A DNA stretch of 64,000 nt from Patescibacteria group bacterium (GCA_035457005.1 DATICB010000001.1:3246-67245), one strand, 5' to 3'. Numbered from the stretch's first letter, positions 9,421 through 42,007 are shown. The notes: generated by a model not told the origin, from the sequence alone. Made by a program: numbers and translations.

Positions 9421-10472
9421 TGCCAACCTCTCAAAAACACGCTGAATATCAATATTTAGATCTTCTGAAAGAAGCACTCAAAGACGGGATTATTAAAATA
9501 GACCGAGGGACAGATATAAAACTTCATAGTTTGTTTGGTCGACAGACACGCTACGATTTATCGCAAGGATTTCCACTGCTCACAACAAAAAAAGTGTACT
9601 GGAAGGGAGTCATTCACGAGTTGTATTGGTTTATGTCAGGGCAAACAAATATTAAATATTTAGTTGATAATAACGTGCATATTTGGGACGACTATCCGTA
9701 CAAAATATATAAGACAAAAATGAGTCAGCATCATTCTGTCATTGCGAGCGAAGCGAAGCAATCTAATAAAAATAAGATTGCCGTGTCGTCTTCGACTCCT
9801 CGCAATGACATTATTTTAACAAAAGAAGAATTTATAGAAAAAATAAAGACAAATAATACGTTTGCCAAAAAATGGGGAAATCTGCCAAGAATTTATGGAG
9901 AAATGTGGCGCAAATGGCCTACCAAGACAGGCCGAACAATAGATCAGCTTGCATGGGTTTTACAGGAAATGAAAGAAGATCCTGATGCAAAAAACCTTAT
10001 TGTCACCTCGTGGAATCCAGAATATATGTATACCATGGCGACTTACGAAGACGCGAATAGGTTTCCAATTTGCCACAACATGTATCAAATCAGCAATCGC
10101 AATGGCTATTTGGACTTACAGCTGTATCAGCGCAGTGCAGATTTATTTTTAGGAGTGCCATTTAATATTGCGTCTTATGCGCTTTTGACTATGATTCTGG
10201 CAAAAATTGCAGGACTCAAGCCTGGTGTTTTTACCCATACATTTGGCGATGTGCATGTGTATGACGATCATGTCGCGGCAGTAAAAGAGCAATTAAAGAG
10301 AAAACCAAGACCATTCCCGAAAATTAAGTTTACTCATGATTTTAAAACGCTCGATGCGTTTCGACCAGAATACGTTGAATTAGTCAATTATGATCCATAC
10401 CCAACTATTAAAGCAGAATTGACTGTTGCAGGTGGACTTTTTGATAAAAAAACAGGGAAGATGGCAGGGTAA
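9421..10472 (+). CDS. thyA: thymidylate synthase ThyA with a ~50-aa small-domain insertion that contains an R1 repeat
   Basis: QYLDLL, IHELYWF, YGEMWRKW, LQLYQRSADLFLGVPFNIASYALL. An in-frame TTG at 9384 is also possible as the start. Confidence 0.85.
9738..9809. repeat. R1 element in frame inside thyA
   Basis: GTCATTGCGAGCGAAGCGAAGCAATC...GATTGCCGTGTCG...CTCGCAATGAC, translated VIASEAKQSNKNKIAVSSSTPRND. Confidence 0.75.
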
Positions 10473-10483
10473 AGATAAGATCT

Positions 10484-10759
10484 TTAGTGACCCCTTCTAA
10501 AAGCATGTACATACGCTCCTGCTGCTGCAGCAAGATCACGCATTGCTTGTGCATCTCTTTGTTGTGTATTTCTAGCATTGAATCCTACGCCCCTTTGACT
10601 TCCGATTGCACGACTAACATGCGTTCGGACGTGATGTCTTGTTGCTGCGTCTCCATGTCGACGCGAGCTGTCTAGCAATGGTGCTGCTGCTTCCCATCCC
10701 GCTCTGTTGCGGTCTATTAGCTGTTGCATTCCTTGCTCTAGTCTTTGTTGAATTGTCAT
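10484..10759 (-). CDS. hypothetical Arg/Ala-rich protein (GC-rich ORF)
   Basis: 91-aa ORF; coding strand uncertain because a + strand ORF overlaps it. Confidence 0.25.
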   Translation of the reverse strand: MTIQQRLEQGMQQLIDRNRAGWEAAAPLLDSSRRHGDAATRHHVRTHVSRAIGSQRGVGFNARNTQQRDAQAMRDLAAAAGAYVHAFRRGH

Positions 10760-10823
10760 TATGTCTATAGTATATACCTTGTGTCAAGAGATGCTTGACA
10801 AAAATTGGACAAAATATTTCTCC

Positions 10824-10852
10824 TTGACATTACTGTGCGTAAACTCTATAGT
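10824..10852 (+). promoter_or_regulatory. sigma70-like promoter (TTGACA-17-TATAGT), probably leaderless
   Basis: The GTG start at 10861 lies 8 nt after the -10 box. Confidence 0.4.
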
Positions 10853-10860
10853 TTTTTCTT

Positions 10861-11085
10861 GTGTCAGACAGACGATTACCAATTTTTAGAGCATCTCAAG
10901 GACAGTGTGAAAATTTAGAAGCAAACGGGCATTGTGGATTAAGGCGACCAGTTCCTGGTTCTCAATTTTTGGGCACTCCACGTTACGATGGCCCTTTCCC
11001 AATGGATCCAGGTACAGGAGATTGCAATTTTAGAAATGAACCAGCATTTCAGCGACTTTGCCGTAAGTACAAACGAAATAATTAG
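10861..11085 (+). CDS. small Cys4 Pro/Gly-rich protein (possible distant member of the 1951-2728 family)
   Basis: 74 aa with 4 Cys. DPGTGDC is comparable to DPATGSGD..APC; basic C-terminus. Confidence 0.35.
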   Translation: MSDRRLPIFRASQGQCENLEANGHCGLRRPVPGSQFLGTPRYDGPFPMDPGTGDCNFRNEPAFQRLCRKYKRNN

Positions 11086-11354
11086 GCTTAAGAAAAATTA
11101 GCGCCTTTTTGCAGGTGATGGTGTTGGTTGGTTTTCTTGTGGCGTTTGTCCACTCTGACGACCAAGATCTCTCATCTGATCCGCTGTTGTTGCAGCTTTT
11201 TCTCTTCGAGCACCACGTCTTTTTTGACGCCAAAACTCTAAAACAGCGGCAATTACGTTTGGTTGGGAAGTTTGTCTTTGCTTTTCCATAATGGCTGCAT
11301 TGTAGATCCATCATGTTTATTTGTCAAATACAGAAATGTGATATAACTAAAACA

Positions 11355-11963
11355 ATGAAAATTTCAGCAATTGCAATTATTTCTAAAAATCGGGGATTGG
11401 GATTTGAGAATCATCTTCTTTTCCATATTCCTGGTGAGCTCCCACGATTAAAAGCAATTACCATGGGCCATCCAGTTGTTATGGGAAGAAAAACGCATGA
11501 GTCAATTGGGAGAATTTTGCCAGGAAGACTCAACATTGTTATTACCAGAAAAGGTGGAGAGGATGTGCCGGGTTTGCTTATTTTTGTTGACAGTTTGGAA
11601 AAAGCATTGGAGATTGCAAAAGAGAGTGAGGGAAAAAAAGTCAAAAAGTCTTCTTCGAGCAAGCAAAGCGAGTCGAGAAGTGAGTTGTCGACAAGCTCGA
11701 ACAAGAATAAGATTGCCGCGTCGGTCGCCAAAGGCGAACCTCCTCGCAATGACAACGAAGGCGAAATCTTTATCTTAGGTGGGGGACAAATTTTTGCAGA
11801 AAGCCTGTCAATAACAGATCGTTTGTATTTGACAATTGTTGATACAGAAGTACCAGCAGATACTTTTTTTCCAGACTACGAAAAAGAATTTACAAAAGTT
11901 ATTACTGAGGAGAAGAAAACAGATTGGGAATACCCCTACACATTTCTTACTTTAGAAAAATAA
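11355..11963 (+). CDS. folA: dihydrofolate reductase with a ~45-aa insertion built from R2 plus an R1 half
   Basis: ISAIAIISKNRGLG..LPRLKAITMGHPVVMGRKTHESIG, IFILGGGQIF. Confidence 0.85.
   Translation: MKISAIAIISKNRGLGFENHLLFHIPGELPRLKAITMGHPVVMGRKTHESIGRILPGRLNIVITRKGGEDVPGLLIFVDSLEKALEIAKESEGKKVKKSSSSKQSESRSELSTSSNKNKIAASVAKGEPPRNDNEGEIFILGGGQIFAESLSITDRLYLTIVDTEVPADTFFPDYEKEFTKVITEEKKTDWEYPYTFLTLEK
11651..11686. repeat. R2 element (CTTCTTCGAGCAAGC.AAGCGAGTCGAGAAG) in frame in folA
   Basis: Also present in recR at 38804-38836; translated SSSSKQSESRSE. Confidence 0.6.
11705..11752. repeat. R1 3' half-element in frame in folA
   Basis: AATAAGATTGCCGCGTCG...CCTCGCAATGAC, translated NKNKIAASVAKGEPPRND. 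Confidence 0.65.
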
Positions 11964-11967
11964 ACAC

Positions 11968-12981
11968 CTACTGTCTTTTCGACCGCCTGAGTCTTTCACT
12001 CATTGTTTTGGGCATGTTGCCAATGTATTCCTGCAAAAGTCCAAGATGCAACTTGCCTGCAGCTAAAATGTGTGCCTTCTGAAACGCTTTCTGCTGATTT
12101 GTTTGTGTCCAGTTCTGTGAAGTTAGCTCATCTGGGTTTTGTGTCATGTATTGGATAACTTCCATTTCTTGAAATGTCTCGACTTTTATGCCTCCCGCTG
12201 TCTTGGCAAGTGGCGGGTAGGTTTTGGCTGCCTCCAATTGATACTGCGCAAATCCTTCTGGCGTTGCTAAATAGGCAAGTTTTTCTGGATCGAGGAGCAC
12301 CACCATTTGTCGCACAGAGTATGCATCTCTGGATGTGTCACGCCTACTACTGTTGTGAATATAGGTTGCCATTTCAATAATGTAGGGAACAGACGGCCAA
12401 TTATTTTCTTGTGCCATTCGTGCAAGTGATGCAAATCGCTCTTGTACTGTTTCCATTTCCCGTCCTGCATGGACTCTCTCTGGTTTGCCAACTCTTTGAA
12501 AAACAATTTGGCCATCTTGAATGGTTGGTATTGCATTGACCTCGTCAAGGCCAACAATTGGATTGACTCTCCACCAATGGTGTTCTTTAAATCTTTCACG
12601 AATTGGGTGAGACCGTCTTTCGTTTCGTTGTATCTGTGCGGCAGAGAGCGCCTTGGACTTTGCATCCAGAAAAGGACTACCAGTATGCTGCTCCTCACCA
12701 ACCAATCGTCGAAGAGAAAGAGCGGGAAAATTTCTGCGAAAATCTTCTTCGCGAATACCATTATCACTAGCAATACCTGCAACATGGAGTCCAATCCCCA
12801 GTGAAAATTTTGTTTTCTTGGGCATATGGCGGACTGATTCTTGGATGAGTTCTTGCCTGGTTGCATCAAGAAGAGTGGTAAAGAGGATCGGGGCTTTTTC
12901 TGTGCGTGGTGAAATTGCAGTTTCGCTGCTTGGTAAGTGAGGATACGGTGGAGGGGTTGTCCCTGCTTCGATCCTTTTCAT
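11968..12981 (-). CDS. hypothetical protein (337 aa) at the distal end of the purine-salvage block
   Basis: Long ORF with no recognised motif. Confidence 0.5.
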   Translation of the reverse strand: MKRIEAGTTPPPYPHLPSSETAISPRTEKAPILFTTLLDATRQELIQESVRHMPKKTKFSLGIGLHVAGIASDNGIREEDFRRNFPALSLRRLVGEEQHTGSPFLDAKSKALSAAQIQRNERRSHPIRERFKEHHWWRVNPIVGLDEVNAIPTIQDGQIVFQRVGKPERVHAGREMETVQERFASLARMAQENNWPSVPYIIEMATYIHNSSRRDTSRDAYSVRQMVVLLDPEKLAYLATPEGFAQYQLEAAKTYPPLAKTAGGIKVETFQEMEVIQYMTQNPDELTSQNWTQTNQQKAFQKAHILAAGKLHLGLLQEYIGNMPKTMSERLRRSKRQ

Positions 12982-13116
12982 ATCACGTCAAAAAAATAGG
13001 TGTCATATATTTGTGCTGACGAAAAGGAGAGAAAATAGCGGAGAATTTTTGGAGTTCCATGACTTATTTTATTTGAAAGAGAGAATTCCTGTCAATAAGA
13101 TAATTTACTATGGGTA

Positions 13117-14175
13117 TTATTTTGATTGTTGGCTGAGTGATGTAGCAAGTTTAATGACCGCTGGAATAAGATAGCGCTCAGCAATTTTGCCACCAGACAA
13201 CACTTCTTCTGCATTTGTTGGATTGGGACTTGCGACATTATTTCGCCTGAGACTTTCTTTTGTTGGAAATTCAGGACGAGAAATAATATTGGTTGCAGCA
13301 GTAAGCCCAATCCAGGGAATTTTTCTGTCAAAACCGTTACTATCTGTAGATGGATCATTGTAATGCTGCATGACCATTGCCTCTGTGGCAAAGGACATGC
13401 CAAAAAGTTGCACCATGTCGGGATTTTGTTGAGAAAGCGCTGGATACATGCCATTTGCAATATCGCCTCTGCCCTCGTAGAGCGGCGCATTGATTGCCAT
13501 CGTATAGATGCCAAGATGCAGATTGTTGGCGGGAATTGTGTCTTCGAGTAGTGCAAATAGGTGCGGATCTGCAGTGTCTGCTTTTCCGGGGAATCGTTGT
13601 CCAAGTCTATCATCATTTGGTCCAATCAGTGGATTGACGCCGTTTTGATTGACATAGTCAACATCCACCACAACATCGCCAACATGAACATTGCCATTAT
13701 CCAATGCGCCTGCTGCATTGGTTGTGACGAGCCAGTTAATTCCCAAGCCTTTGGCAACGCGAAGGGGAGCGGTGATCATCTTTAATTGTTGCGGAGAATA
13801 ATCGGTATCGTACATATGGGCCCTTCCGGTCATAATGCCAACTTCCTGACCACCAATATCGGCAATCACCAACTCTTTTCCATGTCCTGGCGCTGTCGGG
13901 ACAAACCAATGGGGGATTTGCTCCATGGGGATTTTGTCGTGAATGGTTATGTCTGGTGAATCTGCAAGTCCTGCTAACCCTGACCCACACACAATCCAAC
14001 CATCGAGTGTTTTTCTGCCAATTTTTTCTTGCAAACGATTTTCCAGAAACGTTTTGCTTTCGACCAATTGCTCATAATATCTCTGTTGCTCGGCTCTGCC
14101 AATTTCCTGCTGAAGCCCTACGTTAAAACGCTCGCGTGCAATAGTTTTGGCTCTTGATGTTTTTCTTTCGCTCAT
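13117..14175 (-). CDS. purine nucleoside phosphorylase / MTAP family protein
   Basis: GSGLAGL, GRAHMYD, LVTTNAAGAL are PNP/MTAP family-1 motifs. Confidence 0.7.
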   Translation of the reverse strand: MSERKTSRAKTIARERFNVGLQQEIGRAEQQRYYEQLVESKTFLENRLQEKIGRKTLDGWIVCGSGLAGLADSPDITIHDKIPMEQIPHWFVPTAPGHGKELVIADIGGQEVGIMTGRAHMYDTDYSPQQLKMITAPLRVAKGLGINWLVTTNAAGALDNGNVHVGDVVVDVDYVNQNGVNPLIGPNDDRLGQRFPGKADTADPHLFALLEDTIPANNLHLGIYTMAINAPLYEGRGDIANGMYPALSQQNPDMVQLFGMSFATEAMVMQHYNDPSTDSNGFDRKIPWIGLTAATNIISRPEFPTKESLRRNNVASPNPTNAEEVLSGGKIAERYLIPAVIKLATSLSQQSK

Positions 14176-14723
14176 ATAGTTGACCAGTCTACTATACCAA
14201 GTTGTCTTAATTTTTTCTTTGCTTCTTGTAATCCGAATTTTTCTATAAATGCTGCTTTTGTTTCTCTTAATTCATATGGCAAGATGATCCACCCATTTAA
14301 TTGTTCCTCATAAAAATGAGGAACATATTTTGTCCGTGGTTTTATGTACAAAGAGGCAGTGATAAACGACATTACGTTTGATTCTTTGAGATACGCAGTT
14401 GCACGGAGAAATGTTGCGCCGGAATCAGCTAATTCGTCAACTAAAAGGATTTTTTCATTGGTAAATTTCTTAGAAAGCAGGTGCGTAATTACCGGAGTTT
14501 TTTGTTGGTCAAAATTTTTATATGACTCAATAGTAATAAAGGAAATTCTTGCGTCAAGGATGTCTGAAAGAATTCGACTTAAAACAATACCTCCTCTGGC
14601 AATCGCAATGATTTCATCTATTCTTCCATATTCATCGCGAATTTTTTTTGCAAGAGAAATTGCATCTTTTTCATATCTTTGCCAAGAAATAGGAATAAAT
14701 TTTTTTGTAGCTTTTTTATTCAT
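14172..14723 (-). CDS. purine phosphoribosyltransferase
   Basis: ILLVDELADSGATF is a PRPP-binding motif. Confidence 0.7.
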   Translation of the reverse strand: MNKKATKKFIPISWQRYEKDAISLAKKIRDEYGRIDEIIAIARGGIVLSRILSDILDARISFITIESYKNFDQQKTPVITHLLSKKFTNEKILLVDELADSGATFLRATAYLKESNVMSFITASLYIKPRTKYVPHFYEEQLNGWIILPYELRETKAAFIEKFGLQEAKKKLRQLGIVDWSTI

Positions 14724-14976
14724 TAGCTATTTGTAAATGAAAATTCCCAAAAGGGATACGTACTAATCCGTCCCAGGGCGTTATTACTGCTCCATCAATA
14801 TCTGCCGATCCATGTGTTTGACGAACCGATGGGTTGTTGGTAATTGTTTTGCTGTGTTTTCCTCGCCGAAGCGTTACAGTCGTTGGGCGATGCGCATCGT
14901 GAAGCACATGTTCCCTTGTTGCAGGAATACCGTTGATTGTTGTACCAGGAGGAATATCGTGAATTCTCGTTGTCAT
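14716..14976 (-). CDS. hypothetical protein (86 aa from the internal Met, MTTRIHD)
   Basis: Fills the gap exactly between the LOG stop and the PRT start, with short overlaps, so it is probably part of the operon. Confidence 0.4.
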   Translation of the reverse strand: MTTRIHDIPPGTTINGIPATREHVLHDAHRPTTVTLRRGKHSKTITNNPSVRQTHGSADIDGAVITPWDGLVRIPFGNFHLQIANE

Positions 14977-15842
14977 CTCCTTCGTGTATGTTGGCCAATT
15001 GTCTTGTCCCAATATTCATATCCTTGCCGAATTATCCCTACTATCTCGGGGACTGTTGCTGCATAGCGCACTTGCAGATCATCAAACCGTATCAATGGGT
15101 CTACTCCTTGTTTAATACGTTCTTCATACATCATTTTGTGAAAATCTTCAATGGTTTTTTTCCAAAAAGGATGAACAATAATAGGATATTCTGGTTCTAG
15201 ATGATGTGATTGCTTTAGCTGCATAACCATAATCAATTCAAGTGCTGTGCCAATACCACCAGGACCAAAGTATGCTGCATGGGACATATCAATCATTTCC
15301 TGAATTCTTGTTGTGTATTCAGTGTGCTCGTGGTAACTGTCGAGGTTAGGATCTGCTGCTTCTTCGTAGGGAAGCCTAATGCTAACGCCCAAAGTTCTTG
15401 AATTAATATTGCCTGGTAGCGCATCCTCTCGAGCACGTCGTGCGCCAAGTGCTGCGGCACCCATAATACCCGGTCCTGCGCCATTGATAATATCAACACC
15501 AAGTTCTTTTACTAATTCATGAGTGAGTTCTGTGGTAAATTGGTATTCCGGTGAATTCGGATTAATGCGTGCGCTTCCTGAAACCATGACTCGATAGTGT
15601 GTTGCAAGCTCATGGTGAAGAAGCTCTCTCCGTGCGCTGTTATATTCTCTACCTTTTTGCAGCACGCGTTCTCTTGCGCGCCTCCCATCGCCACGATGGA
15701 GACGTATAATACCCTGTGCTGCTTGGCTTTGTAGCTGGTCTAGCACCTCTGTTCTTGTTGATGTATACTTTTTTGCTTCATCAATTTCTGTCTCTGGAAT
15801 TCGGTGAGATCTGTGGAAAAGACCCTCTCTTATTTTTGTCAT
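14973..15842 (-). CDS. LOG family protein (nucleotide 5'-monophosphate nucleosidase / Rossmann TIGR00730-like)
   Basis: GAGPGIMGA and GPGGIGTALEL motifs. Confidence 0.7.
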   Translation of the reverse strand: MTKIREGLFHRSHRIPETEIDEAKKYTSTRTEVLDQLQSQAAQGIIRLHRGDGRRARERVLQKGREYNSARRELLHHELATHYRVMVSGSARINPNSPEYQFTTELTHELVKELGVDIINGAGPGIMGAAALGARRAREDALPGNINSRTLGVSIRLPYEEAADPNLDSYHEHTEYTTRIQEMIDMSHAAYFGPGGIGTALELIMVMQLKQSHHLEPEYPIIVHPFWKKTIEDFHKMMYEERIKQGVDPLIRFDDLQVRYAATVPEIVGIIRQGYEYWDKTIGQHTRRR

Positions 15843-15943
15843 GGTGTGTATTGTAAAAAAATAGAGGTAAGGTGTCTGTTCTGAGCAGAACGAGAAGATA
15901 GTTCTGAAAAGAACGCAGGAATTGTTCTACAGAGAACACATTC

Positions 15944-17041: not shown

Positions 17042-19390
17042 ATGTATCAACGATTTGGAGAGAGTGCACTGCCGAGAGTGATTAATCATATTGTTTCTCC
17101 TGTTAAAATTCCACCAACGCTCCTTTTTGCGACACGAAATCAAAATAAACTGCGTGAATACCAAAGAATATTAAAAAAGCCTGTGGAAGGAATTGATTTA
17201 AAGGTGCCAGAAATTCAGGACAGCGATCCGCTCAAAGTTCTTTCTGAAAAAGCAAAAACAGCCTATGCAATTCATGGAGGACCAATTTTTGTTGAGGACA
17301 CAAGTTTTACGCTTCCAGAGTTGGACAACATGATTGGGCCGTATGCAGACAACGAAACAAGCTCGCGTGCCAAGCTTGCAGCAATTTGTCGCATGTTTGA
17401 CACAACGCATAAAAGGGAAGCGATTGTTGTAGTTGGTATTGCGCTTTTTGACGGACGCGAAGTGTATATGTGGGTAGGAAAAGTGTCTGGCACTGTTGCT
17501 GCCTCGCCGTTAGGCAGTAATGGATTTGGATTTGATGCAATTTTTATTCCAAAAGGAGCGAAAAAAACATTTGCCCAAATGACGGATAGTGAAAAAGATA
17601 GTTATAGTCCTCGAAAAAGTGCGCTTTTGGATTTAGTAAAAAACCCTCCAAGCTTAGCTGAGCCTATTTTCCAACTGCAAGAGCCGTCAGTATTTCAAAC
17701 AAATAGAATCAGAAAAGAAGAAATAGCAAAAAGAAACGCATTACAATTTGCCTTTAGCATGGAATCTTTGGAAAAAGCCCGTTCAGCAGGTTTAGCTCGA
17801 GCAACAAAACCAAATGTCAAATTGGAAGTAAGTACTTATGCGCCATTTACTGAGGTATTGCACTACAATGGCGCAGTAAGGGAATATACTGTTGATCCAA
17901 AATCTGCATCAATGGGACTTGTTCTTCTCACAGAAGTAGATTTAAAAACAGTGCCTGATAAAGGGAAAAAACGAGCTATAAGACTTGCAGTCAGTGACAC
18001 TGGCAATCCTCTTTTGTATCAAATGGGGCCAAAGGCGATGGAAATTGTCTTGGCTGCACGAGCAGCTGAGTATTTAGATATGCACTCAGCAGATATGCAC
18101 CAACACGTACGCGATTTGTTGTCTGGAAAAATACAGCATGTATCGCGAAGCAGTACCAGATCTTCTGTTTTGGAAGAAGTGTTGGGAATGTTTGTCAAAA
18201 CAGATGAGAAAGGCGTGCATAAAATTATTCATGGAGCAAGTACAGCAATTGCAACAAAAGAATTAGGATACAAAAGATTATCGAGCGGAGGTATTTTAAG
18301 CAGAAAACAAGCTGCAAAAGGACTTTTGATGAGAGGACCAGATGGCGTGGTTTCGAGTTTGTATTCATACGGCGGTATGCCGCCAACAACAGGGAGTCGC
18401 GACAGTATTGTGACAGCAGCAATGTCTTTTATGCGGGCATGGATTCCAAGAAACGGCGTGTTTGCAGGAAATTTTGCAAGACAACTCCAGCTTTTTAAAC
18501 AAGCAAAAAAAGCAATTATCGGCTTTGGTTTGCCAAAAGACATTGAAAAGCAGGTAATTTCCCAAATCGGGATTGCAGTTGGCTGTGACAATCCTGTTAG
18601 TATCGCCAGAGATGTGAAGAAATTTGCTCTGCTTGGCGGACATGCTGCAAGAATTTATACAACCAATCCAGATATACGAATTATTGAAACAGCAAAAGCA
18701 ATTCGAAAAGCAACGGGCCCGAATTTTCTTTTGTGTGTTGGGCCGGTGACTGATTACGAGCAGGCTGTTCGTCTAAAAAAAGAAGCACAGGTACACATGT
18801 TTTTAGTAGGTCATGGTGGAGGAGAAAATTGTACGTCCCTTACTGCAGGCGGTGCAGCAAATTCAATAGAACTTCTGTATCAACTCTACCTAGATCCACT
18901 GTTTAATGACTGCATTATTGGTTTGGAAGGTGGGACTGGGACAACCATTGGTGCGCTGCTACCACTTTTGGATGTTATTTCTTTGAATAAACGTGGTATC
19001 GGCGGATTCGAAAGCACACAGGGATTGTATGCATTAAAAGCGCGCAACGGCAAAGAAGAGCCAGTTATTCCGTATCATGGATCAGCCAGTGCTGCAACGC
19101 AGTTGATTGAAGCATACATGAGCCCAGAGATTGCAAAAAAAAGATTGGGGCCAGATGGTATTGTGCGGGCAGTTGAGGGAAAAGTAAATTACATTGTGCT
19201 CAATGACGCAGTGAGGAGTAATGTAAGCGCAATCCGGGAAAATAGAGCCATTGCAGGACTAGCGTTAGCTGATCAGCAGTCTTTGTCTATATATCAACTG
19301 CGCGAAAGAGTGAAAAAGTTAGGACATAATCATGTGGGTATTTCTGCTGCATCAAGTGTTGTCGCTAACGAACACAGGAGTGGGGTATAA
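17042..19390 (+). CDS. fusion protein: N-terminal non-canonical purine NTP pyrophosphatase (RdgB/Ham1 ITPase) and C-terminal IMPDH/GMP-reductase-like TIM-barrel domain
   Basis: ATRNQNKLREY, FVEDTSF and GFGFDAIFIPKGAKKTFAQM..SPRKSA are Ham1 motifs. VGPVTDYEQAVRL...VGHGGGENCTSLTAGG...GLEGGTGTTIGALL resembles the IMPDH catalytic-Cys loop and phosphate-binding region. Confidence 0.6.
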   Translation: MYQRFGESALPRVINHIVSPVKIPPTLLFATRNQNKLREYQRILKKPVEGIDLKVPEIQDSDPLKVLSEKAKTAYAIHGGPIFVEDTSFTLPELDNMIGPYADNETSSRAKLAAICRMFDTTHKREAIVVVGIALFDGREVYMWVGKVSGTVAASPLGSNGFGFDAIFIPKGAKKTFAQMTDSEKDSYSPRKSALLDLVKNPPSLAEPIFQLQEPSVFQTNRIRKEEIAKRNALQFAFSMESLEKARSAGLARATKPNVKLEVSTYAPFTEVLHYNGAVREYTVDPKSASMGLVLLTEVDLKTVPDKGKKRAIRLAVSDTGNPLLYQMGPKAMEIVLAARAAEYLDMHSADMHQHVRDLLSGKIQHVSRSSTRSSVLEEVLGMFVKTDEKGVHKIIHGASTAIATKELGYKRLSSGGILSRKQAAKGLLMRGPDGVVSSLYSYGGMPPTTGSRDSIVTAAMSFMRAWIPRNGVFAGNFARQLQLFKQAKKAIIGFGLPKDIEKQVISQIGIAVGCDNPVSIARDVKKFALLGGHAARIYTTNPDIRIIETAKAIRKATGPNFLLCVGPVTDYEQAVRLKKEAQVHMFLVGHGGGENCTSLTAGGAANSIELLYQLYLDPLFNDCIIGLEGGTGTTIGALLPLLDVISLNKRGIGGFESTQGLYALKARNGKEEPVIPYHGSASAATQLIEAYMSPEIAKKRLGPDGIVRAVEGKVNYIVLNDAVRSNVSAIRENRAIAGLALADQQSLSIYQLRERVKKLGHNHVGISAASSVVANEHRSGV

Positions 19391-19399
19391 AGTTGTTGA

Positions 19400-19426
19400 T
19401 GTCGTCCTGAGCAAAGCGAAAGGATC
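19400..19426. repeat. R3 hairpin-unit repeat (GTCGTCCTGAGCAAAGCGAAAGGATC)
   Basis: Intergenic, upstream of glyA. Confidence 0.55.
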
Positions 19427-29020: not shown

Positions 29021-29093
29021 GTCACGGTTGGATAGCTCTTTGAGCATTCAACGTGACCCTGTTAGATGCGAAGCTATCTAACAGGGGAGGTGA
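29021..29093 (+). promoter_or_regulatory. conserved bipartite 5' leader (hairpin A, hairpin B, GGGGAGGTG SD), copy 1
   Basis: A is GTCACG-GTTGGATAG..CATTCAA-CGTGAC. B is CTGTTAGAT-GCGAAGC-TATCTAACAG. Then GGGGAGGTGAAAAAATATG. Confidence 0.55.
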
Positions 29094-29099
29094 AAAAAT

Positions 29100-29423
29100 A
29101 TGAATCCAATTATTTGTACAATTTGTCAAAAAACAAATCATTTACCGGAAAAACAAGTTATTGTTATGGCAAATTTTGCACAGAAGTATCAAGCAGAAAG
29201 AGCGTTATTTGATATTCAAAAATCACACATTGCTATTGTCTGGCAGAGAATTTTTGTCCGGTCAGATTTTATAACACTTATTTTGTCATTGCATGGCATA
29301 AAAGATATTGTTCATCTGCAAAGTCTTTACATTGAAAGTATGTGTCAAAATAATAATGCATTAACAATTGATGTTGTTTCGCAAAAAGTACATCAAGAAA
29401 AATTATTGTCTGCTTTGAGCTAG
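29100..29423 (+). CDS. hypothetical protein (107 aa)
   Basis: ORF with a strong SD. Confidence 0.45.
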   Translation: MNPIICTICQKTNHLPEKQVIVMANFAQKYQAERALFDIQKSHIAIVWQRIFVRSDFITLILSLHGIKDIVHLQSLYIESMCQNNNALTIDVVSQKVHQEKLLSALS

Positions 29424-33368: not shown

Positions 33369-34286
33369 ATGCACGTTATTATTACCCACGCATCTCCTGA
33401 CTGGGACGCAATTGGTTCTGTTTGGATTTTAAAGCGATTTTTGCCAGGATGGGAGAATGCAAAAGTGGAATTTGTCCCGGCAGGTAATCGGAGCCCACGC
33501 GTTTTACGAAAAGAAAAAGAAGCAGATACACAAGTCGTCGTAGAATCTGATGACACAAAAATAATTCACGTCGATACTGGGCTTACTCCTTTAGATCATC
33601 ATCAAATTTATGATACCAATGTCTGTTCAACAAGTAGATGTTGGGACTATGTTGCCCGCGAAAATCCCAATCTTCATGCAACAACATCGGACACAAAAAG
33701 AGACGATAAAATTGTTGCGATGGAGCGAATCGTTAGCTACATTGTTGCGCTGGATCATTTTCAGGAAATTTTTTGGCCAGACGCTGGATCTGACATTCAC
33801 GAGTTTAGTCTCTATGGCATTTTAGAGGGAATGAAGGGACTTCATCCTGACGATGATGACTATTTTGTGAGTTGGGGAATGGATATTTTGGATGCAATGC
33901 TCAAACGATTTGAGAGCAGAGTTTGGGCAGAAAAAGAAATTGCAAAAGGGAAAGAATTTAGTACGAAGTGGGGAAAGGCAATTGCGATTGAGACAATCAA
34001 TGATAGTGTGATTAAGCTTGCGCAAAAAATGGGATATGTTGTGGTTGTCAGACGTGATCCGCGAAAAGGATATGTGCGAATTAAAGCAGTTCCATTTAAA
34101 GAAGGGGTGACTCCAAATGTTAATTTAAGCCTTGTGCATAATCAGCTCGAAAAAATGGATCCAGAGGCAACGTGGTTTCTTCATGTCTCCAATAAAATGC
34201 TTCTTAATGGCACGCCAAAAAACCCAAAAATGGTACCAACAAAACTTTCTTTAGAGCAGATTGTTTCGGTTTTGGAAAAGATATAA
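33369..34286 (+). CDS. DHH family phosphoesterase (NrnA-like)
   Basis: ITHASPDWDAIGS and LTPLDHHQ motifs. Confidence 0.65.
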   Translation: MHVIITHASPDWDAIGSVWILKRFLPGWENAKVEFVPAGNRSPRVLRKEKEADTQVVVESDDTKIIHVDTGLTPLDHHQIYDTNVCSTSRCWDYVARENPNLHATTSDTKRDDKIVAMERIVSYIVALDHFQEIFWPDAGSDIHEFSLYGILEGMKGLHPDDDDYFVSWGMDILDAMLKRFESRVWAEKEIAKGKEFSTKWGKAIAIETINDSVIKLAQKMGYVVVVRRDPRKGYVRIKAVPFKEGVTPNVNLSLVHNQLEKMDPEATWFLHVSNKMLLNGTPKNPKMVPTKLSLEQIVSVLEKI

Positions 34287-34288: not shown

Positions 34289-34363
34289 GTCATCGCGAGT
34301 TTGCCTGCTGGCAACGTGGCGATCTTTAAAAGATTGCTTCGTCACTACGTTCCTCGCAATGAC
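34289..34363. repeat. R1 element, intergenic copy filling the gap between DHH and HIT
   Basis: GTCATCGCGAG...GATTGCTTCGTCACTACGTTCCTCGCAATGAC. Confidence 0.7.
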
Positions 34364-34370: not shown

Positions 34371-34694
34371 ATGGATAGCTGTATTTTCTGCAAAATTGCG
34401 AGTCATATTGAACCCAAAAGCTTTACTTACGAAGACGAAGACATTATGGTTTTTCCAGACACGCATCCTGTTAAGCCTGTTCATCTTCTTATTGTTCCTA
34501 AAAAGCACTATAAAGATTTCATAGAGCTTAGTGACGCTGTTTTGTGGAATAAGATTCGGGAAGTTGCCCAGAAACTTGTTGGTCAGTTTGATCTAGCAGA
34601 TAAAGGCTTTCGCATCTCAATTAATGGCGGTGGGGCACAAAAAATTGACCATTTGCATGTTCACCTCATGGGACCAATGGGAAAGATGGTATAA
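34371..34694 (+). CDS. HIT family protein
   Basis: HLHVHLMG histidine triad. The start was taken at MDSC, downstream of the repeat. Confidence 0.75.
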   Translation: MDSCIFCKIASHIEPKSFTYEDEDIMVFPDTHPVKPVHLLIVPKKHYKDFIELSDAVLWNKIREVAQKLVGQFDLADKGFRISINGGGAQKIDHLHVHLMGPMGKMV

Positions 34695-34742
34695 GGAAAA
34701 GTGTTGTGGAATTTGTTTTACATAGCTTTTTTAGCGAGACAG

Positions 34743-34770
34743 GATCCTTCGTTTCACTCAGGATGACATG
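34743..34770. repeat. R3 hairpin-unit repeat, reverse orientation
   Basis: CAGGATCCTTCGTTTCACTCAGGATGAC. Confidence 0.55.
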
Positions 34771-37072: not shown

Positions 37073-37089
37073 CAATGCATTTAGTGATT

Positions 37090-37161
37090 GCTACAGTTAG
37101 ATAGTCCTTTGGACATCTAGCGTAGCCCCGTTAGATGCAAAGCTATCTAACGGGGGAGGTG
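37090..37161 (+). promoter_or_regulatory. conserved bipartite 5' leader, copy 3 (upstream of ybaB)
   Basis: A is GCTAC-AGTTAGATAG..CATCTAGC-GTAGC. B is CCGTTAGAT-GCAAAGC-TATCTAACGG. Then GGGGGAGGTGAA. Confidence 0.55.
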
Positions 37162-37172
37162 AATTACTGATT

Positions 37173-37457
37173 ATGTTTAATCCATTTCAACAATTAGGAG
37201 ATTTAAAGAAAATGCGCGACCAGGCAATGCAAATTCAAAAAGCGCTGCAAGCCGAGCAAATTACTGTAGAAAAATCAGGTGTTACTGTTGTTATGACAGG
37301 AGATCAGAAAGTTGTTTCTATTTCGAGTAACGGAAGATCGGACAATGACATTAAAGATTGTCTAAATGAAGCAATTAAAAAATCTCAAGAAATAGCAGCA
37401 AAAAAATTAGCACAAATGGGTGGCGGTTTGGGTGGGCTTATGGGAGGAGGCAATTAA
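37173..37457 (+). CDS. ybaB: nucleoid-associated protein YbaB/EbfC
   Basis: Length and pattern (central beta region, Gly-rich tail) fit YbaB; position between dnaX and recR. Confidence 0.7.
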   Translation: MFNPFQQLGDLKKMRDQAMQIQKALQAEQITVEKSGVTVVMTGDQKVVSISSNGRSDNDIKDCLNEAIKKSQEIAAKKLAQMGGGLGGLMGGGN

Positions 37458-37463
37458 GCGAAA

Positions 37464-38399
37464 ATGAAGATTTTTTCAGGAAGTGCAAGTCGAGCGTTGA
37501 CAGAGGAAGTAGTGAAAGTCATGAATATTCCACTGTCTTTAATTGATGTGCATGTTTTCCCAGATGGAGAAAGGCGAATCCGCATTCACGACAAAGTGGT
37601 TGGGAAATCAACAGCTGTTATTCAGACAGCATCAACTCCAGTAGACACCAACTACATGGAGCTTTTTTTTATTGTTGATGCACTCAAGCGGTCTGGTGCA
37701 GAATTTGTGACTGCAGTCATTCCATATTTTGGGTATCAGAGACAAGATCACGTTTTTCGCGATGGAGAGGCTGTTTCTTTGGAAGTCGTTATTCACATTT
37801 TAGAAAGTTTAAAAGTAGATAGAATGGTGAGTTTGGACATGCATTCTAGTCGAATTCCTGATTTATTTAGTATTCCTGTTGGGCATTTATCTGCATTACC
37901 TCTTTTTGCCGAAGAAATTAGAAAACATAAATGGAATAATACCGACACTGTTTTAGTATCTCCAGACACAGGAGGCATTGGCAGAATTAAAAAATTATCA
38001 ACACTTCTAGAGGACATGCCGTATGCTGTTTTGGAAAAAGTTAGAGATTTATCATCTGGTGCAATCTCTATTGCAGATATCGAAGAAGGGTCCTTGCGTG
38101 GGAAAAAACGTGCAATTTTGGTTGATGACATGATTTCCTCTGGTGGAACGATTATTATGGGCGCGTCTTTGTTGGCAGCACAGGGAATAGAGGAGATTTA
38201 CGTTTTTGCGACACATCCTGTTTTTTCACATGACGCGCCGGACAGGCTGCAAAATTCTGCAATTAAAAAAGTGTATGTAACCGACACAGTTGCTGTTGCG
38301 CAAGATAAGCAATTTTCTAAATTAGAAGTATTGTCTGTAGGTACGTTGATTGCAAACGAACTCAAACATCCAACCGCATCTAACGATCCATTGTTGTAA
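37464..38399 (+). CDS. prs: ribose-phosphate pyrophosphokinase
   Basis: FSGSAS, FPDGE, VSPDTGGIGR, ILVDDMISSGGT. Confidence 0.85.
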   Translation: MKIFSGSASRALTEEVVKVMNIPLSLIDVHVFPDGERRIRIHDKVVGKSTAVIQTASTPVDTNYMELFFIVDALKRSGAEFVTAVIPYFGYQRQDHVFRDGEAVSLEVVIHILESLKVDRMVSLDMHSSRIPDLFSIPVGHLSALPLFAEEIRKHKWNNTDTVLVSPDTGGIGRIKKLSTLLEDMPYAVLEKVRDLSSGAISIADIEEGSLRGKKRAILVDDMISSGGTIIMGASLLAAQGIEEIYVFATHPVFSHDAPDRLQNSAIKKVYVTDTVAVAQDKQFSKLEVLSVGTLIANELKHPTASNDPLL

Positions 38400-38405
38400 T
38401 AGCCT

Positions 38406-39077
38406 ATGAAAATTCCACGAGCAGTACAAAATCTTATTGAGTCGTTTGAAAAACTGCCTGGCGTTGGGCCAAAGTCTGCTCAGCGGCTTACGTTTTATTT
38501 ACTGCATGTCCCACAAGGCGAATTGGATACCTTTGCAAAAAGCCTAACAGAGCTAAAAACAGGCACCAAATTGTGCTCTATTTGCATGTCAATTGACGAA
38601 ACAGACCCATGCTCAATTTGCTCGGATGGCCTTCGGGATCACGCAACAATTTGTGTTGTCGAGCAGCCTTTGGATGTCTTGGCTTTGGAAAAATCAGGAA
38701 CCTATAAAGGAATCTATCACGTGCTACACGGGAGAATTGATCCACTCAATAATTTGGGGCCAGATGAGATTTATGTGGGGAAGTTATTCGACAGGATAAA
38801 AAATTCTTCTTCGAGCAAGCCTAGCGAATCGAGAAGTCTTGAGGAAAGTTCTCGACTTCGCTCGAACGAGAACACTCATATTAAAGAAATAATTCTAGCT
38901 ACCAATCCTACCATGGAAGGCGAGGCAACAGCAATGTATATTACCAAACAATTAAAAGCATTAGGTTTTGCTGGTGCTATAACAAGAATTGGAAGAGGTT
39001 TGCCGGTTGGTGCGGATTTGGAATATGCAGACGAAATTACTTTGCAGCGCGCTATGGAAGGCAGAAGCGAAGTATAA
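38406..39077 (+). CDS. recR: recombination protein RecR with an in-frame R2-derived insertion
   Basis: LPGVGPKSAQRL, C-x2-C...C-x2-C zinc finger, Toprim region. Confidence 0.85.
   Translation: MKIPRAVQNLIESFEKLPGVGPKSAQRLTFYLLHVPQGELDTFAKSLTELKTGTKLCSICMSIDETDPCSICSDGLRDHATICVVEQPLDVLALEKSGTYKGIYHVLHGRIDPLNNLGPDEIYVGKLFDRIKNSSSSKPSESRSLEESSRLRSNENTHIKEIILATNPTMEGEATAMYITKQLKALGFAGAITRIGRGLPVGADLEYADEITLQRAMEGRSEV
38804..38875. repeat. R2 element plus palindromic extension, in frame in recR
   Basis: TTCTTCTTCGAGCAAGCCTAGCGAATCGAGAAG..., translated NSSSSKPSESRSLEESSRLRS. Confidence 0.6.
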
Positions 39078-39138
39078 CTGCTCAAAATTTTCCTCCGTAA
39101 AAAGCATAATGCTAATTTTCAGATTAACTTGATCTACT

Positions 39139-39525
39139 TTGGAGTATTTTGTTCTATTGATAGAAAAACAATTTTTTCGTAACATGCTTGTTATGAGTCT
39201 ATTTGGTGGACAACAAGATCCAAATGCAAAAAGAAGAGCACAGCGAAGAGCTGGAGTAAAAGCTGCTTTAGAAGCAGAGCGCTCGCGAGTAAGAGCAGCT
39301 GATGAATTAGCAACGCAGCATGCTGATGAAGCACAAAGAAATCTTTGGGCAGGTCTTATGCTGGAAGGTGTACGTGCTGGCATACCAGTAGGAAGACAGC
39401 AACAAGAAGAAATTACAGCAGCAGAAAGAAGAGGTGCGGAAGGGACATTGGGTGCAATGGAAAGAATGAGAGTTGGTAGTAATGGTAACGGGCAAAATGG
39501 ACAAAATGGACATCACGAGCGTTAA
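39139..39525 (+). CDS. hypothetical Arg/Gln/Glu-rich protein ending in a NGQNG tail
   Basis: GC-richer ORF, compositionally similar to 39739-40224. Confidence 0.4.
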   Translation: MEYFVLLIEKQFFRNMLVMSLFGGQQDPNAKRRAQRRAGVKAALEAERSRVRAADELATQHADEAQRNLWAGLMLEGVRAGIPVGRQQQEEITAAERRGAEGTLGAMERMRVGSNGNGQNGQNGHHER

Positions 39526-39551
39526 TTGTACAATGGTGTATTTTTTCAATT

Positions 39552-39572
39552 CTCCCGTAAGGGAGTTTTTTA
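39552..39572 (+). terminator. rho-independent terminator CTCCC-GTAA-GGGAG plus T-run
   Basis: Perfect 5-bp GC-rich stem followed by 6 T. Confidence 0.6.
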
Positions 39573-39738
39573 TTGGTTTTACTCTTTTGGGTAAAAGACA
39601 TATTACCGGTCTAACATATTTTATTCTTTATTTTATAGAGATGTTCTTTTGTATGGAAAAACGGAAAATTTACTAGGCCGAAATAACTTCTTTATAGGAC
39701 TATTTTAAGTATTGACAAAATAGGTAAGATAGATTAAA

Positions 39739-40224
39739 ATGTGTTTTACTATGAGCGAAACATTTGGTCAAAATGGAAGATCCTCAGTAAGAGTTGTTGC
39801 ATCCGGACTACCACGTCAGAGTCATGATATAGTGGTTACGCCTTCAACAATAGGAATTTCAGAAGAAACTGCAGAAGTATTACGACAACAGGGCGAACAA
39901 AGATTAGCCGATCGATTAGCAGAGCAGAGGAGACAAGAAGAAGTAGAGAGGCAGCATGCAGAAGAAATAAAAGGACTACAAGCACAGGTAGCAGATCTTC
40001 AGAGATGGCCAGATGCGCATGCACTAGCACGACAAATGGAAGCAAACAGCGGCGCGCGTCAAACTGATCCAACTGATTCTATTTCCACCTGGCATTTAGA
40101 ACACGATAAAGGTCTAGAGACTGCAAGAGAGCATGGTCTGAGAAGAGTACCCAGTGCTGATGCAACAAAAGGCAATGGAAATGGAGATGGTAATGGGAGA
40201 AGAAGATGGTTGAGAAGAAAATAA
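39739..40224 (+). CDS. hypothetical Arg/Gln/Glu-rich protein ending in a NGNGDGNG tail
   Basis: Similar composition, tail and terminator to 39139-39525. Confidence 0.4.
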   Translation: MCFTMSETFGQNGRSSVRVVASGLPRQSHDIVVTPSTIGISEETAEVLRQQGEQRLADRLAEQRRQEEVERQHAEEIKGLQAQVADLQRWPDAHALARQMEANSGARQTDPTDSISTWHLEHDKGLETAREHGLRRVPSADATKGNGNGDGNGRRRWLRRK

Positions 40225-40250
40225 AACATAAATTGTTGAGATCGATAATG

Positions 40251-40272
40251 CTCCCAATAGGGAGTTTTTTTA
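40251..40272 (+). terminator. rho-independent terminator CTCCC-AATA-GGGAG plus T-run
   Basis: Same architecture as the terminator at 39552-39572. Confidence 0.6.
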
Positions 40273-40377
40273 TGGCTCTGCAAAGCAGAATATTAGAACA
40301 CGCTTTGGTAAAAGATAATTCTTAATATGTTTCGCATGATTCTGGACAAGGCAGAATGACAAAGGTACAATACTTCA

Positions 40378-41055
40378 ATGAGAATCGGTGTGTTTGGCGG
40401 CAGATTTGATCCAATTCACAATGGTCACTTGGCTGTTGCGAAAGAAGTTTTGAAAATGGGTAAAGCAGACGAAGTGTGGTTAAGTATAGAAAATCAGCAC
40501 CAGTGGCGGCCAATTATTGCAGCAGCTAATGATAGAAAAAAAATGGCAGAATTGGCAATAGATTCAATTACAGATGTCATCCTGAGCAATGCGAAGGATA
40601 TATATTCTTCGGCTATGTCTCAGAATGACAAAAATAAGATTGCCGTGTCGCCTGAGGCTCCTCGCAATGACATCCAAAATAATTTTAAAGTAGATATGAC
40701 GCCGGTTGAGCTGGGTGGGACAACAGAAACAATACAAGTCGTTAGGCAGTTGCGAAAAAAATATCCAGAGCATGAATTTATTTTCATTGTTGGGTCGGAT
40801 CAATTGCCAACATTTCATAAATGGTCACACTGGGAAGATTTAAAAAAAGAAGTGCAATTTTTAATTGTTACCAGAAAGGGCTCGCCTTTGGATAATATTC
40901 CTAAAAATGCTTCTGTTATTACCGATCCAACATACGAACCACTCGATGACAGCGCGACGCGAATACGGGAATTTCTGCATGTTGGTACATCTATCTCTGG
41001 CCTTGTCCCAAAAGCAGTGGAGGAGTATATTAAAGAGCACAAGCTGTACCAGTGA
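40378..41055 (+). CDS. nadD: nicotinate-nucleotide adenylyltransferase with an in-frame R3 unit and R1 half-element insertion
   Basis: GVFGGRFDPIHNGHL. Confidence 0.85.
   Translation: MRIGVFGGRFDPIHNGHLAVAKEVLKMGKADEVWLSIENQHQWRPIIAAANDRKKMAELAIDSITDVILSNAKDIYSSAMSQNDKNKIAVSPEAPRNDIQNNFKVDMTPVELGGTTETIQVVRQLRKKYPEHEFIFIVGSDQLPTFHKWSHWEDLKKEVQFLIVTRKGSPLDNIPKNASVITDPTYEPLDDSATRIREFLHVGTSISGLVPKAVEEYIKEHKLYQ
40575..40671. repeat. R3 unit (40575-40600) plus R1 3' half (40631-40671), in frame in nadD
   Basis: GTCATCCTGAGCAATGCGAAGGAT ... AAAATAAGATTGCCGTGTCG...CTCGCAATGAC, translated VILSNAKDI...DKNKIAVSPEAPRND. Confidence 0.7.
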
Positions 41056-41179
41056 AATTAACCTAATTCACCTAATTAACCTAATTTCTAAATAAGCACC
41101 AATAAATCAAATTTTAGAAATTGGAACTCAGGAATTATTTAGGTCAATTAGAAATTAGAATAATTAGAAATTTTAGGAT
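41056..41179. repeat. AT-rich intergenic element (ACCTAATT repeats ... TTAGAAATT repeats ... TTTTAGG), second copy
   Basis: Shares ordered blocks with the element at 23966-24047. Confidence 0.6.
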
Positions 41180-42007
41180 ATGTTTGACTTAGATTACACA
41201 AAAAAAGCACAAGAAATTCAGGATTGGATTGCCACAACAGTGCGTAGTGCAGGATTTGAAAAAGTTATTTTGGCAGTGTCTGGTGGTGTGGACAGCGCTG
41301 TATCGCTTAGTCTAGCAGTAAAGGCATTGGGAAAAGAAAATGTGTACGCAGTACTTTTGCCATATGGAACATTAAGTTCGGCTTCACTTGAACATGGAAA
41401 ATTGGTTGTTGAGTCTGCTGGTCTTCCAAAAGATCATGTGTTTGTCCGCGATATCCAATCAGGAGTTGATAAGCTATGGTCTGTCATTGCGAACGAAGCG
41501 AAGCAATCTGATACAAATGACGAGATTGCCGCGTCGCAAGCTCCTCGCAATGACACTTCAATTCGCCGAGGCAATATGATGGCAAGAGTGCGCATGATAT
41601 ATTTATTTGATTTGGCAAAAAGCTTGGGGGCGTTAGTTGTTGGAACAGAAAATAAAAGTGAGCATTATTTGGGCTATTTTACGCGTTTTGGAGACGAAGC
41701 ATCGGACATAGAACCAATTCGATCGTTATACAAAACACAAGTGTGGGAAATGGCAAAAAGCTTGGGAGTTCCGAAAGAAATTATCGAGAAAAAACCTTCT
41801 GCAGGGCTTTGGGAAAATCAATCAGATGAAGGAGAATTTGGTTTTTCTTATACAGATGCAGACAAAGTGTTGTATTTTTCTTTTGAAGAAAAAAAATCTC
41901 AAGAAGAAATAATTGCCTTAGGGTTTGATAAAAAATTAGTAGAAAATGTCTTGGGCTTTGCTCGCAAAAATGATTTTAAACACCACGTTCCATACATTTT
42001 TGAATAA
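41180..42007 (+). CDS. nadE: NH3-dependent NAD+ synthetase with an in-frame R1 insertion
   Basis: VILAVSGGVDSAV, RRGNMMARVRM. Confidence 0.85.
   Translation: MFDLDYTKKAQEIQDWIATTVRSAGFEKVILAVSGGVDSAVSLSLAVKALGKENVYAVLLPYGTLSSASLEHGKLVVESAGLPKDHVFVRDIQSGVDKLWSVIANEAKQSDTNDEIAASQAPRNDTSIRRGNMMARVRMIYLFDLAKSLGALVVGTENKSEHYLGYFTRFGDEASDIEPIRSLYKTQVWEMAKSLGVPKEIIEKKPSAGLWENQSDEGEFGFSYTDADKVLYFSFEEKKSQEEIIALGFDKKLVENVLGFARKNDFKHHVPYIFE
41483..41553. repeat. R1 element in frame in nadE
   Basis: GTCATTGCGAACGAAGCGAAGCAATC...GATTGCCGCGTCGCAAGCTCCTCGCAATGAC, translated VIANEAKQSDTNDEIAASQAPRND. Confidence 0.75.

Follow-up and report, generated by a model that had tools for sequence, protein, structure and literature searches.

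Analysis of a 64,000-nt stretch of DNA from a Patescibacteria group bacterium (GCA_035457005.1 DATICB010000001.1:3246-67245; hereafter the window, numbered from its first letter) revealed short palindromic elements, built of paired DNA hairpins, that lie between genes and also inside the genes of five enzymes, where they keep the reading frame and contain no stop codon. [quoted passage not shown] The elements move as doublets, produce no target duplication, maintain their hairpins by compensated changes, share termini across phyla, occupy protein loops and tight gaps between genes, and are missing from close orthologues. An earlier, sequence-only reading of the window had proposed a MITE-like palindromic repeat inserted in frame and without stops in essential enzymes, in the manner of the Rickettsia palindromic elements (RPEs); the termini, the Pfam matches, the orthologues and the structures support this proposal.

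Hairpin repeats within and between genes

The terminus of the R1 family, GTCATTGCGAG, allowing up to one mismatch, matched 12 times on the two strands of the 64-kb window against 0.88 matches expected, a number reached in none of 100 shuffles. The matches pair into five full elements of 72-123 bp, bounded by termini of 11-12 nt, and two right halves. All seven R1 sites proposed earlier were recovered, although two of their ends had been placed one base short (11752 and 41553, for 11753 and 41554). Two full elements, each of 72 bp, lie in frame on the plus strand of enzyme genes: the copy at 9738-9809, read as VIASEAKQSNKNKIAVSSSTPRND, is in thyA (thymidylate synthase, L. casei type; 9423-10472, plus strand; Pfam Thymidylat_synt PF00303, 3e-91; PDB 1lca, 5e-82), and the copy at 41483-41554, read as VIANEAKQSDTNDEIAASQAPRND, is in nadE (NH3-dependent NAD synthetase; 41180-42007, plus strand; Pfam NAD_synthase PF02540, 8e-68; PDB 2e18, 8e-52). 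The right half-units, also in frame on the plus strand, are in folA (11706-11753, ..KIAASVAKGEPPRND), which encodes dihydrofolate reductase (DHFR; 11313-11963, plus strand; Pfam DHFR_1, 2.5e-43), and in nadD (40631-40671, KNKIAVSPEAPRND), which encodes a nicotinate-nucleotide adenylyltransferase-like protein (40378-41055, plus strand; Pfam CTP_transf_like PF01467, 9e-22). Pfam bears out the identities of all four R1 host genes, but the list of enzyme hosts was incomplete: recR (38406-39077, plus strand; Pfam RecR_HhH, RecR_ZnF, Toprim_4 and RecR_C) had been overlooked and carries a palindromic element of another family, R3, in frame on the plus strand at about 38805-38876 (ends approximate; SSSSKPSESRSLEESSRLRSNENT). 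The Toprim match in recR spans 106 residues against 76 profile positions and is thus about 30 residues longer.

The copies in folA and nadD had been taken for half copies of R1. They are composites instead, in each of which a full R3 or R2 element is followed by an R1 right half. In folA the first part is a full palindromic R3 element (11646-11705, plus strand, in frame, KSSSSKQSESRSELSTSSNK), recognised from sequence and fold as a repeat common to recR; in nadD it is a full R2 element of 54 bp (40576-40629, plus strand, in frame, VILSNAKDIYSSAMSQND; termini GTCATCCTGAG / CTCAGAATGAC). In both composites (11646-11753 and 40576-40671) the full element of the other family occupies the exact place of the R1 left unit, and in a locus outside the window (L047) a three-unit composite has been copied as a block (6429 and 8549). 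This layout, taken together with the block copy, suggests insertion into or beside existing units, or an exchange of units.

The inserts translate as VIASEAKQSNKNKIAVSSSTPRND in thyA, NKNKIAASVAKGEPPRND in folA, DKNKIAVSPEAPRND (also ..KIAVSPEAPRND) in nadD and VIANEAKQSDTNDEIAASQAPRND in nadE, with SVIASEAKQSNK and IAVSSSTPR among the predicted insert peptides. All four enzymes read R1 as VIAxEAKQS...IAxS...PRND, in agreement with the single shared frame proposed earlier. The further claim that this is the only frame free of TGA did not hold, as frame +1 (SLRAKRSNL...LLAM) is also without stops in the thyA and nadE copies, each of which has two open frames per orientation, or four of six overall. 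All coding insertions have lengths divisible by 3 and contain no stop in the frame of the host gene, and among the coding copies seen, all full R1 elements and the full R2 elements read in frame share one frame and orientation. Some insertions of other families in orthologues use other frames (ThyA of P0029 and P0024, NadE of L246). Outside the window, in-frame hosts include UvrA (L173), GuaA (L165) and CysS (L246 and L250).

The use of a single frame where four of six are open, together with the lack of any length constraint in intergenic copies, favours translation of the inserts over their removal from the RNA. It bears on the proposal that the inserts are intervening sequences, intron- or intein-like, removed after transcription or after translation. 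Patescibacteria are known, to judge from the titles of papers, for many rRNA and tRNA introns, and the inserts do form strong hairpins. However, an insert removed before translation would need neither a length that is a multiple of 3 nor one stop-free hydrophilic frame chosen among four open ones, no ribozyme or intron family in Rfam matched, and at 24-37 residues, with no matching motifs, the inserts are far too small for inteins. They therefore have the features of neither self-splicing introns nor inteins, and we regard this proposal as highly improbable.

Non-coding MITE-like copies of R1 had been proposed at three sites, and termini were found at all three. The element at 7252-7330 (79 bp, not a multiple of 3) is flanked by the divergent open reading frames (ORFs) 4943-7243 (minus strand) and 7504-7845 (plus strand). 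That at 34289-34363 (75 bp) occupies the gap between ORF 33369-34286 and a HIT gene, starting 2 nt past the stop of the former and ending 7 nt ahead of the ATG of the latter, and its left unit is a compensatory variant, ATCGC..GCGAT. This copy falls inside a GTG-started ORF, but the HIT domain starts at the ATG at 34371, and we therefore treated it as intergenic. The third, at 42009-42131 (123 bp), has a long AT-rich spacer and begins 1 nt past the nadE stop. R2 is represented by a full intergenic element at 890-964, directly 3′ of tRNA-Cys, and by two single units: one on the plus strand (19401-19426, GTCGTCCTGAGCAAAGCGAAAGGATC), 10 nt past the stop of a Ham1-fusion ORF, and one on the minus strand (34742-34767, GTCATCCTGAGTGAAACGAAGGATCC on that strand), downstream of the HIT gene. 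The predicted start of ORF 960-1442 is an ATG within the right terminus (..CTCAGAATGAC) of the R2 element at 890-964, which may thus supply or extend the N-terminus of this ORF. In the 782 aa encoded by the Ham1-fusion ORF (17042-19390), a Ham1 (ITPase) domain covers residues 27-200 and the long rest is unannotated; a similar gene of 787 aa is present in locus L003. The window has a G+C content of about 40%, and about 88% of it is coding. Six of its 11 repeat loci lie in the non-coding 12% or so, which is an intergenic excess, and the other five are inside genes.

The unit of these elements is a hairpin of 26-45 nt, consisting of a YGTC head, a 5-bp outer stem, a purine-rich GAG/GAA internal loop, a variable inner stem-loop and a final C. 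An element comprises two units placed tail to tail with a short spacer between them; single units, three-unit composites and arrays were also seen. The outer stem is ATTGC/GCAAT in R1 and ATCCT/AGGAT in R2, so that the two families have the same architecture and their outer-stem differences are fully compensated. Position 6 of the terminus and its partner form T-A in 269 cases and C-G in 29, with about 20 others. In 67 distinct aligned units of equal length, 85.4% of the cells pair, compared with 77.0% in shuffles (0 of 500 reached the observed value), and 51 cells have changed on both sides against 10.3 expected; controls with a slid partner paired in 19-51%. The common non-Watson-Crick cells fall at two inner pairs and are G-A/A-G, which in other copies are G-C/C-G. 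The tip of the hairpin carries GCGNAGC or GCGNNAGC in 339 of 587 units (58%), the variants being GCGAAGC (178), GCGCAGC (78), GCGTAGC (35) and GCGGAGC (21). In excerpts of PMC13037366, DNA of this kind (GCGNAGC/GCGNNAGC) is described as an extraordinarily stable, nuclease-resistant mini-hairpin that occurs at priming sites of phages and plasmids, including those of phage G4 and ssiA, and in promoters.

Alternatively, the elements might primarily be nucleic-acid signals kept by the host, such as protectors or terminators of mRNA 3′ ends, sites for gyrase or nucleoid proteins of the kind suggested for REPs and bacterial interspersed mosaic elements (BIMEs) of E. coli, or priming signals on single-stranded DNA, with the coding copies being collateral or regulatory (e.g., pausing translation). 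The hairpin structure is under selection, its core is, according to the same excerpts (PMC13037366), the nuclease-resistant mini-hairpin of the phage G4 and ssiA priming sites, and the intergenic copies are placed precisely in the interval from a stop to the start that follows (34289-34363 and 42009-42131) or just past a stop (19401 and 34742). Nevertheless, no Rfam family matches, no T-run follows the hairpins of the window copies, the 7252 copy sits in a divergent promoter region, and a role for the host leaves the presence of copies within five enzymes unexplained. We consider a host signal unlikely as the whole explanation, although it is compatible with a mobile element.

Orthologues without the insert and structure of the host proteins

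The claim that the extra residues are lineage-specific was upheld by the alignment of orthologues. The best relatives of the ThyA of the window are from Patescibacteria (Daviesbacteria, Saccharimonadales and "Patescibacteria group"). It is 349 aa long, whereas most of its 120 best homologues have about 325 aa, and four orthologues with 82-84% identity (P0002-P0005) lack the 24 inserted residues. In the codon alignment of thyA, two loci (L002 and L003) have a gap at the insert and a third (L001), an independent ENA assembly (ERZ27237554) whose ThyA is 84% identical to that of the window, holds a diverged copy in the same place. Likewise, three NadE orthologues (L244, L245 and L247; 63-67% identity) are without the insert, a NadD orthologue (L245; 58% identity) is without the entire 36-residue stretch, and DHFR has 216 aa compared with 167 and 185 aa in the syntenic loci L002 and L003.

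These comparisons also speak to the concern that repeats were misjoined into genes during assembly or binning. The genome to which the window belongs was probably assembled from a metagenome, and misassembly classically arises at repeats. Against this, the independent assembly has its own diverged copy at the same thyA position, independent datasets contain analogous in-frame insertions in ThyA, NadE, CysS, UvrA and GuaA, and the reading frames continue perfectly on both sides of the inserts. The likelihood of an artefact is therefore negligible.

The earlier proposal that the insertions fall in variable surface loops agrees with the structures. The match of DHFR to PDB 7rzo falls into two parts, residues 2-94 and 135-198, with a clean insertion of 40 residues between them, and NadE has 37 residues where the Pyrococcus enzyme (PDB 2e18) has 16; both insertions are clean gaps between conserved blocks of the alignments. 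The ThyA insertion lies where the small domain of the L. casei-type enzyme is variable (PDB 1lca). In an AlphaFold2 model of ThyA (predicted template modelling score 0.85) the fold is kept, and the insert (residues 106-129) has a low predicted local distance difference test score of 56-68 between flanks of 89-96.

The same loops have received other hairpin-repeat families in more distant orthologues. In ThyA these were found in P0037 (VILSGSEGS..SVQND), P0029 (RHAELVSASH..RDDN), P0076, P0057 and P0024, with half units in P0087 and P0091; in NadE they were found in L248 and L249 (VILERQNV..SLQND), L253 and L246, with a remnant in L250. Insertion into these loops has thus recurred. In a crude neighbour-joining tree of ThyA from which the loop was excluded, the insertion-bearing members are scattered, the ThyA of the window being sister to the element-free P0003 and P0001 to the element-free P0007, which indicates repeated gain or precise loss. 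Many element-free ThyAs (P0022, P0030, P0056, P0067, P0080, P0111 and others) have short KSQ/KNQ/ESRIK-type peptides in the loop after DDYPYK, which resemble what decay of other repeat families would leave behind.

The recurrence is relevant to the idea that the inserted peptides are themselves selected protein modules (interaction or localisation loops) to which the palindrome is secondary. The peptide is hydrophilic, a single frame serves all coding copies of the window and most of the insertions in orthologues, and the thyA insertion is common to L001 at 84% protein identity. However, it is the DNA palindrome and the hairpin pairs that are conserved, not the peptide; non-coding copies have identical termini and lengths that are not multiples of 3; the closest orthologues work without the insert; different families place unrelated peptides in the same loop; and the AlphaFold2 confidence of the insert is low. 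A selected module appears very unlikely on these grounds.

Distribution, mobility and other repeats in the window

The pattern GTCATYGCGAR-N40-70-YTCGCRATGAC was scanned in IMG/VR and in the GTDB species genomes and matched at least 120 stretches in each, those of GTDB from about a dozen phyla. Among the GTDB matches listed were Bradyrhizobium, sphingomonads, Rickettsiales, Gamma-, Beta- and Deltaproteobacteria, Nitrospirota, Chloroflexota, Bacteroidota (Pedobacter, Mucilaginibacter and Flavobacterium), Planctomycetota, Cyanobacteria (Nostoc and Microcoleus), Aminicenantes and Patescibacteria; the element is also present on plasmids of Novosphingobium, Methylosinus, Methylocystis and Aulosira. 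The R1 family is thus not confined to one lineage. Such conservation of the terminus across phyla is what reading by a conserved host factor would predict, and it is a point in favour of the host signal considered above. The element-bearing contigs of IMG/VR (L004-L123) are mostly head-tail gene clusters of Alphaproteobacteria resembling gene transfer agents (GTAs). Carriage by phages was considered and set aside, as matches in curated phage genomes were few and limited to half units.

Element length is mostly 64-92 bp, doublets being 60-100 bp, and over all elements it is uniform modulo 3 (107/106/85). A target-site duplication was absent from 268 of 298 elements and at chance level in the remainder. 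In the same 298 elements the base at -1 is C/T in 93% and that at +1 is G/A in 97%, so that the palindrome extends by one base. Flank matching among 294 elements found orthologous filled sites and no empty site. In four loci (L047, L062, L040 and L178), copies that are 91-100% identical, spacer included, have unrelated flanks and sit amid clusters of extra termini, which indicates that the doublet was copied as a whole to unrelated sites. Tandem arrays and copies with unrelated flanks resemble selfish spread and count against a host signal. Two database proteins, P0121 (439 aa) and P0122 (198 aa), consist almost wholly of tandem element arrays read in one frame and are spurious ORFs made by the repeat. 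An exhaustive protein search with a 30-aa element peptide returned only two such ORFs over arrays, and a 48-aa tandem peptide found no word-sharing candidates.

Several candidates for a partner or a known identity were tried and rejected. A tblastn search of plasmids with E. coli RayT found REP-associated tyrosine transposases (RAYTs) in Chloroflexota and cyanobacteria, flanked by REPs of the GTAG type. When the 6,031 ORFs of 240 loci were clustered all against all in search of a conserved neighbour gene, only GTA or phage head-tail genes emerged, which reflects how IMG/VR picks contigs. A small GIY-YIG gene lies between thyA and folA in L002, but the window has two small ORFs there for which Pfam gave no match, and, the five wider pairs described below aside, no pair of termini surrounds a gene. 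No known RNA family in Rfam matched, whether at the gathering score or with the threshold relaxed to E≤10. Searches of about 8 million papers, which exclude subscription papers and figures, for the peptides and exact DNA strings retrieved nothing relevant, and no literature linking MITEs with Patescibacteria was found. The impression of the sequence-only reading that the family had not been described is uncontradicted by these Rfam, DNA-string and peptide searches, although an earlier description may exist.

The following observations weigh against a mobile repeat tolerated in loops. Neither the window nor 2.6 Mb of element-bearing loci yielded a RAYT homologue, and the RAYTs that were inspected had flanks of the GTAG type and not of the GTCAT type. 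In 2 Mb of loci taken around short elements, a search for an autonomous copy returned terminus pairs 60-140 bp apart, save for five wider pairs (about 160-4,900 bp) whose contents were unexamined, and no shared transposase-like neighbour was found among the 6,031 ORFs of the 240 loci. No pair of empty and filled sites was close enough to define the target at the nucleotide level. An 11-nt terminus conserved across phyla is unusual for a MITE or a REP and could reflect a conserved cellular function instead. The left unit in thyA (9738-9763) is identical at 25 of 26 positions to that of L001 (1262-1287), while the surrounding codons, as they appear in the alignment, differ at many positions; the right unit of the L001 element has a decayed inner hairpin. 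Drift alone is insufficient to account for such identity amid diverged codons, which hints at constraint at the DNA level or conversion from other copies. Finally, translation of the inserts in the host enzymes is predicted from the reading frames rather than observed.

On balance, we favour a mobile hairpin repeat that is tolerated in protein loops. Insertion would be essentially indifferent to coding status, and purifying selection would purge coding insertions unless they are in frame and stop-free, encode a peptide both hydrophilic and flexible (frame VIAxEAKQS...PRND) and are situated in tolerant loops. The peptides would then be translated, tolerated by-products, as with RPEs. The absence of target duplication, the conserved head and the hairpin conserved in shape suggest recognition of single-stranded DNA, as for REP/RAYT or IS200-type systems. 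Most speculatively, movement may proceed via single-stranded DNA with the help of a trans-acting enzyme that recognises the hairpin shape and the conserved head, for which an HUH/Y1-type transposase or a widely conserved host function would be a candidate. A bolder extension, to which we give only a small chance, is that the GTC-headed doublets of Proteobacteria, Bacteroidota, Cyanobacteria, Chloroflexota, Planctomycetota, Nitrospirota, Patescibacteria and others form one class of mobile DNA, either of great age or highly promiscuous, spread without an element-encoded transposase by a conserved host process acting on stable single-stranded DNA mini-hairpins (priming, replication restart or repair, for example), and that in the gene-dense Patescibacteria this class is a constant supply of loop insertions by which essential enzymes are remodelled. 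The combination of a conserved terminus and a GCGNAGC hairpin with no transposase found raises the question of what moves or maintains these elements.

Other repeats are present in the window. A 71-nt repeat occurs at 29024-29094 and 37093-37163 (80% identical), directly upstream of the small ORFs 29100-29423 and 37173-37457; it contains a hairpin, CCCTGTTAGAT-GCGAAGC-TATCTAACAGGG, followed by GGAGGTGAA, has no Rfam match, and may serve both ORFs as a cis-regulatory leader. Another repeat, of 35 nt, occurs at 1528-1562 and 1885-1919 (97% identical). Its second copy starts at the 3′ end of tRNA-Ile (1812-1886), and no tRNA was detected ahead of the first. The nadD-nadE spacer contains an AT-rich inverted repeat (41059-41091 / 41148-41180) with arms of 33 nt that are 76% complementary and are built of short repeats like TAACCTAATT.

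Comparison with known systems

Classical MITEs, such as Correia/NEMIS, ERIC and the QMITEs of Coxiella (PMC10969869; PMC5896051), resemble the present elements in being small, with terminal inverted repeats and no transposase or other coding gene of their own, and in occasionally fusing in frame with ORFs. Unlike them, the elements described here make no target-site duplication, the 2 Mb searched revealed no parent insertion sequence sharing their ends (the contents of the five wider pairs aside), and the interior is hypervariable while preserving its structure, and is not a decayed transposase remnant.

The likeness to REPs and their assemblies, including BIMEs and REPINs (PMC3116915; E. coli rayT), lies in a short imperfect palindrome with a conserved head, arranged in inverted doublets with a spacer, in singlets, in clusters and in arrays, and in the lack of target-site duplication; recognition as a single-stranded hairpin is plausible for both. 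The head here is YGTCAT and not GTAG, however, and the location is not restricted to extragenic DNA, since five of the 11 loci of the window are inside genes. REP families are also species-specific, whereas the present family crosses phyla. This conservation across phyla, together with the mini-hairpin core, is unusual compared with the known kinds of element. The mini-hairpin itself is a structural motif and not a genetic element, even though more than half of the units here (the 58% given above) carry it exactly.

Integron attC sites resemble the elements here in being imperfect palindromes (57-141 bp) whose ends are conserved, whose centre varies and which contain a pair of inner repeats. 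As folded single strands, attC sites are recognised less by their sequence than by their shape. Their termini are RYYYAAC/GTTRRRY, compared with GTCATTGCGAG/CTCGCAATGAC here, where there are neither gene cassettes nor an integrase context.

RPEs, which are about 150 bp long and confined to Rickettsia according to the summary of Ogata et al. (2000) given in PMC10969869, share with the present elements the occurrence of palindromic repeats between genes and, unusually often, in frame inside unrelated housekeeping genes, where the peptides appear at places that the fold tolerates, and both reside in host-dependent bacteria with small genomes. Stop-free, in-frame insertion into unrelated genes was found in five hosts of the window and in related loci. 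The elements here are, however, of 54-123 bp (typically 64-92), are made of two short hairpin units, have termini found in many phyla and reside in a Patescibacterium; they thus differ from RPEs in size and host, and are set apart from the RPE families by description, not by consensus sequence. If the inserts are translated, Patescibacteria would join Rickettsia as a second case, independent and far broader, of selfish palindromic DNA reshaping essential proteins, the proteins affected being thymidylate synthase, DHFR, RecR, NadD, NadE, CysS, UvrA and GuaA. Such peptides would inflate the apparent protein novelty of candidate phyla, create spurious ORFs, and mislead homology searches and structure models, and the many independent insertions at one loop offer a natural experiment on the tolerance of loops to insertion.

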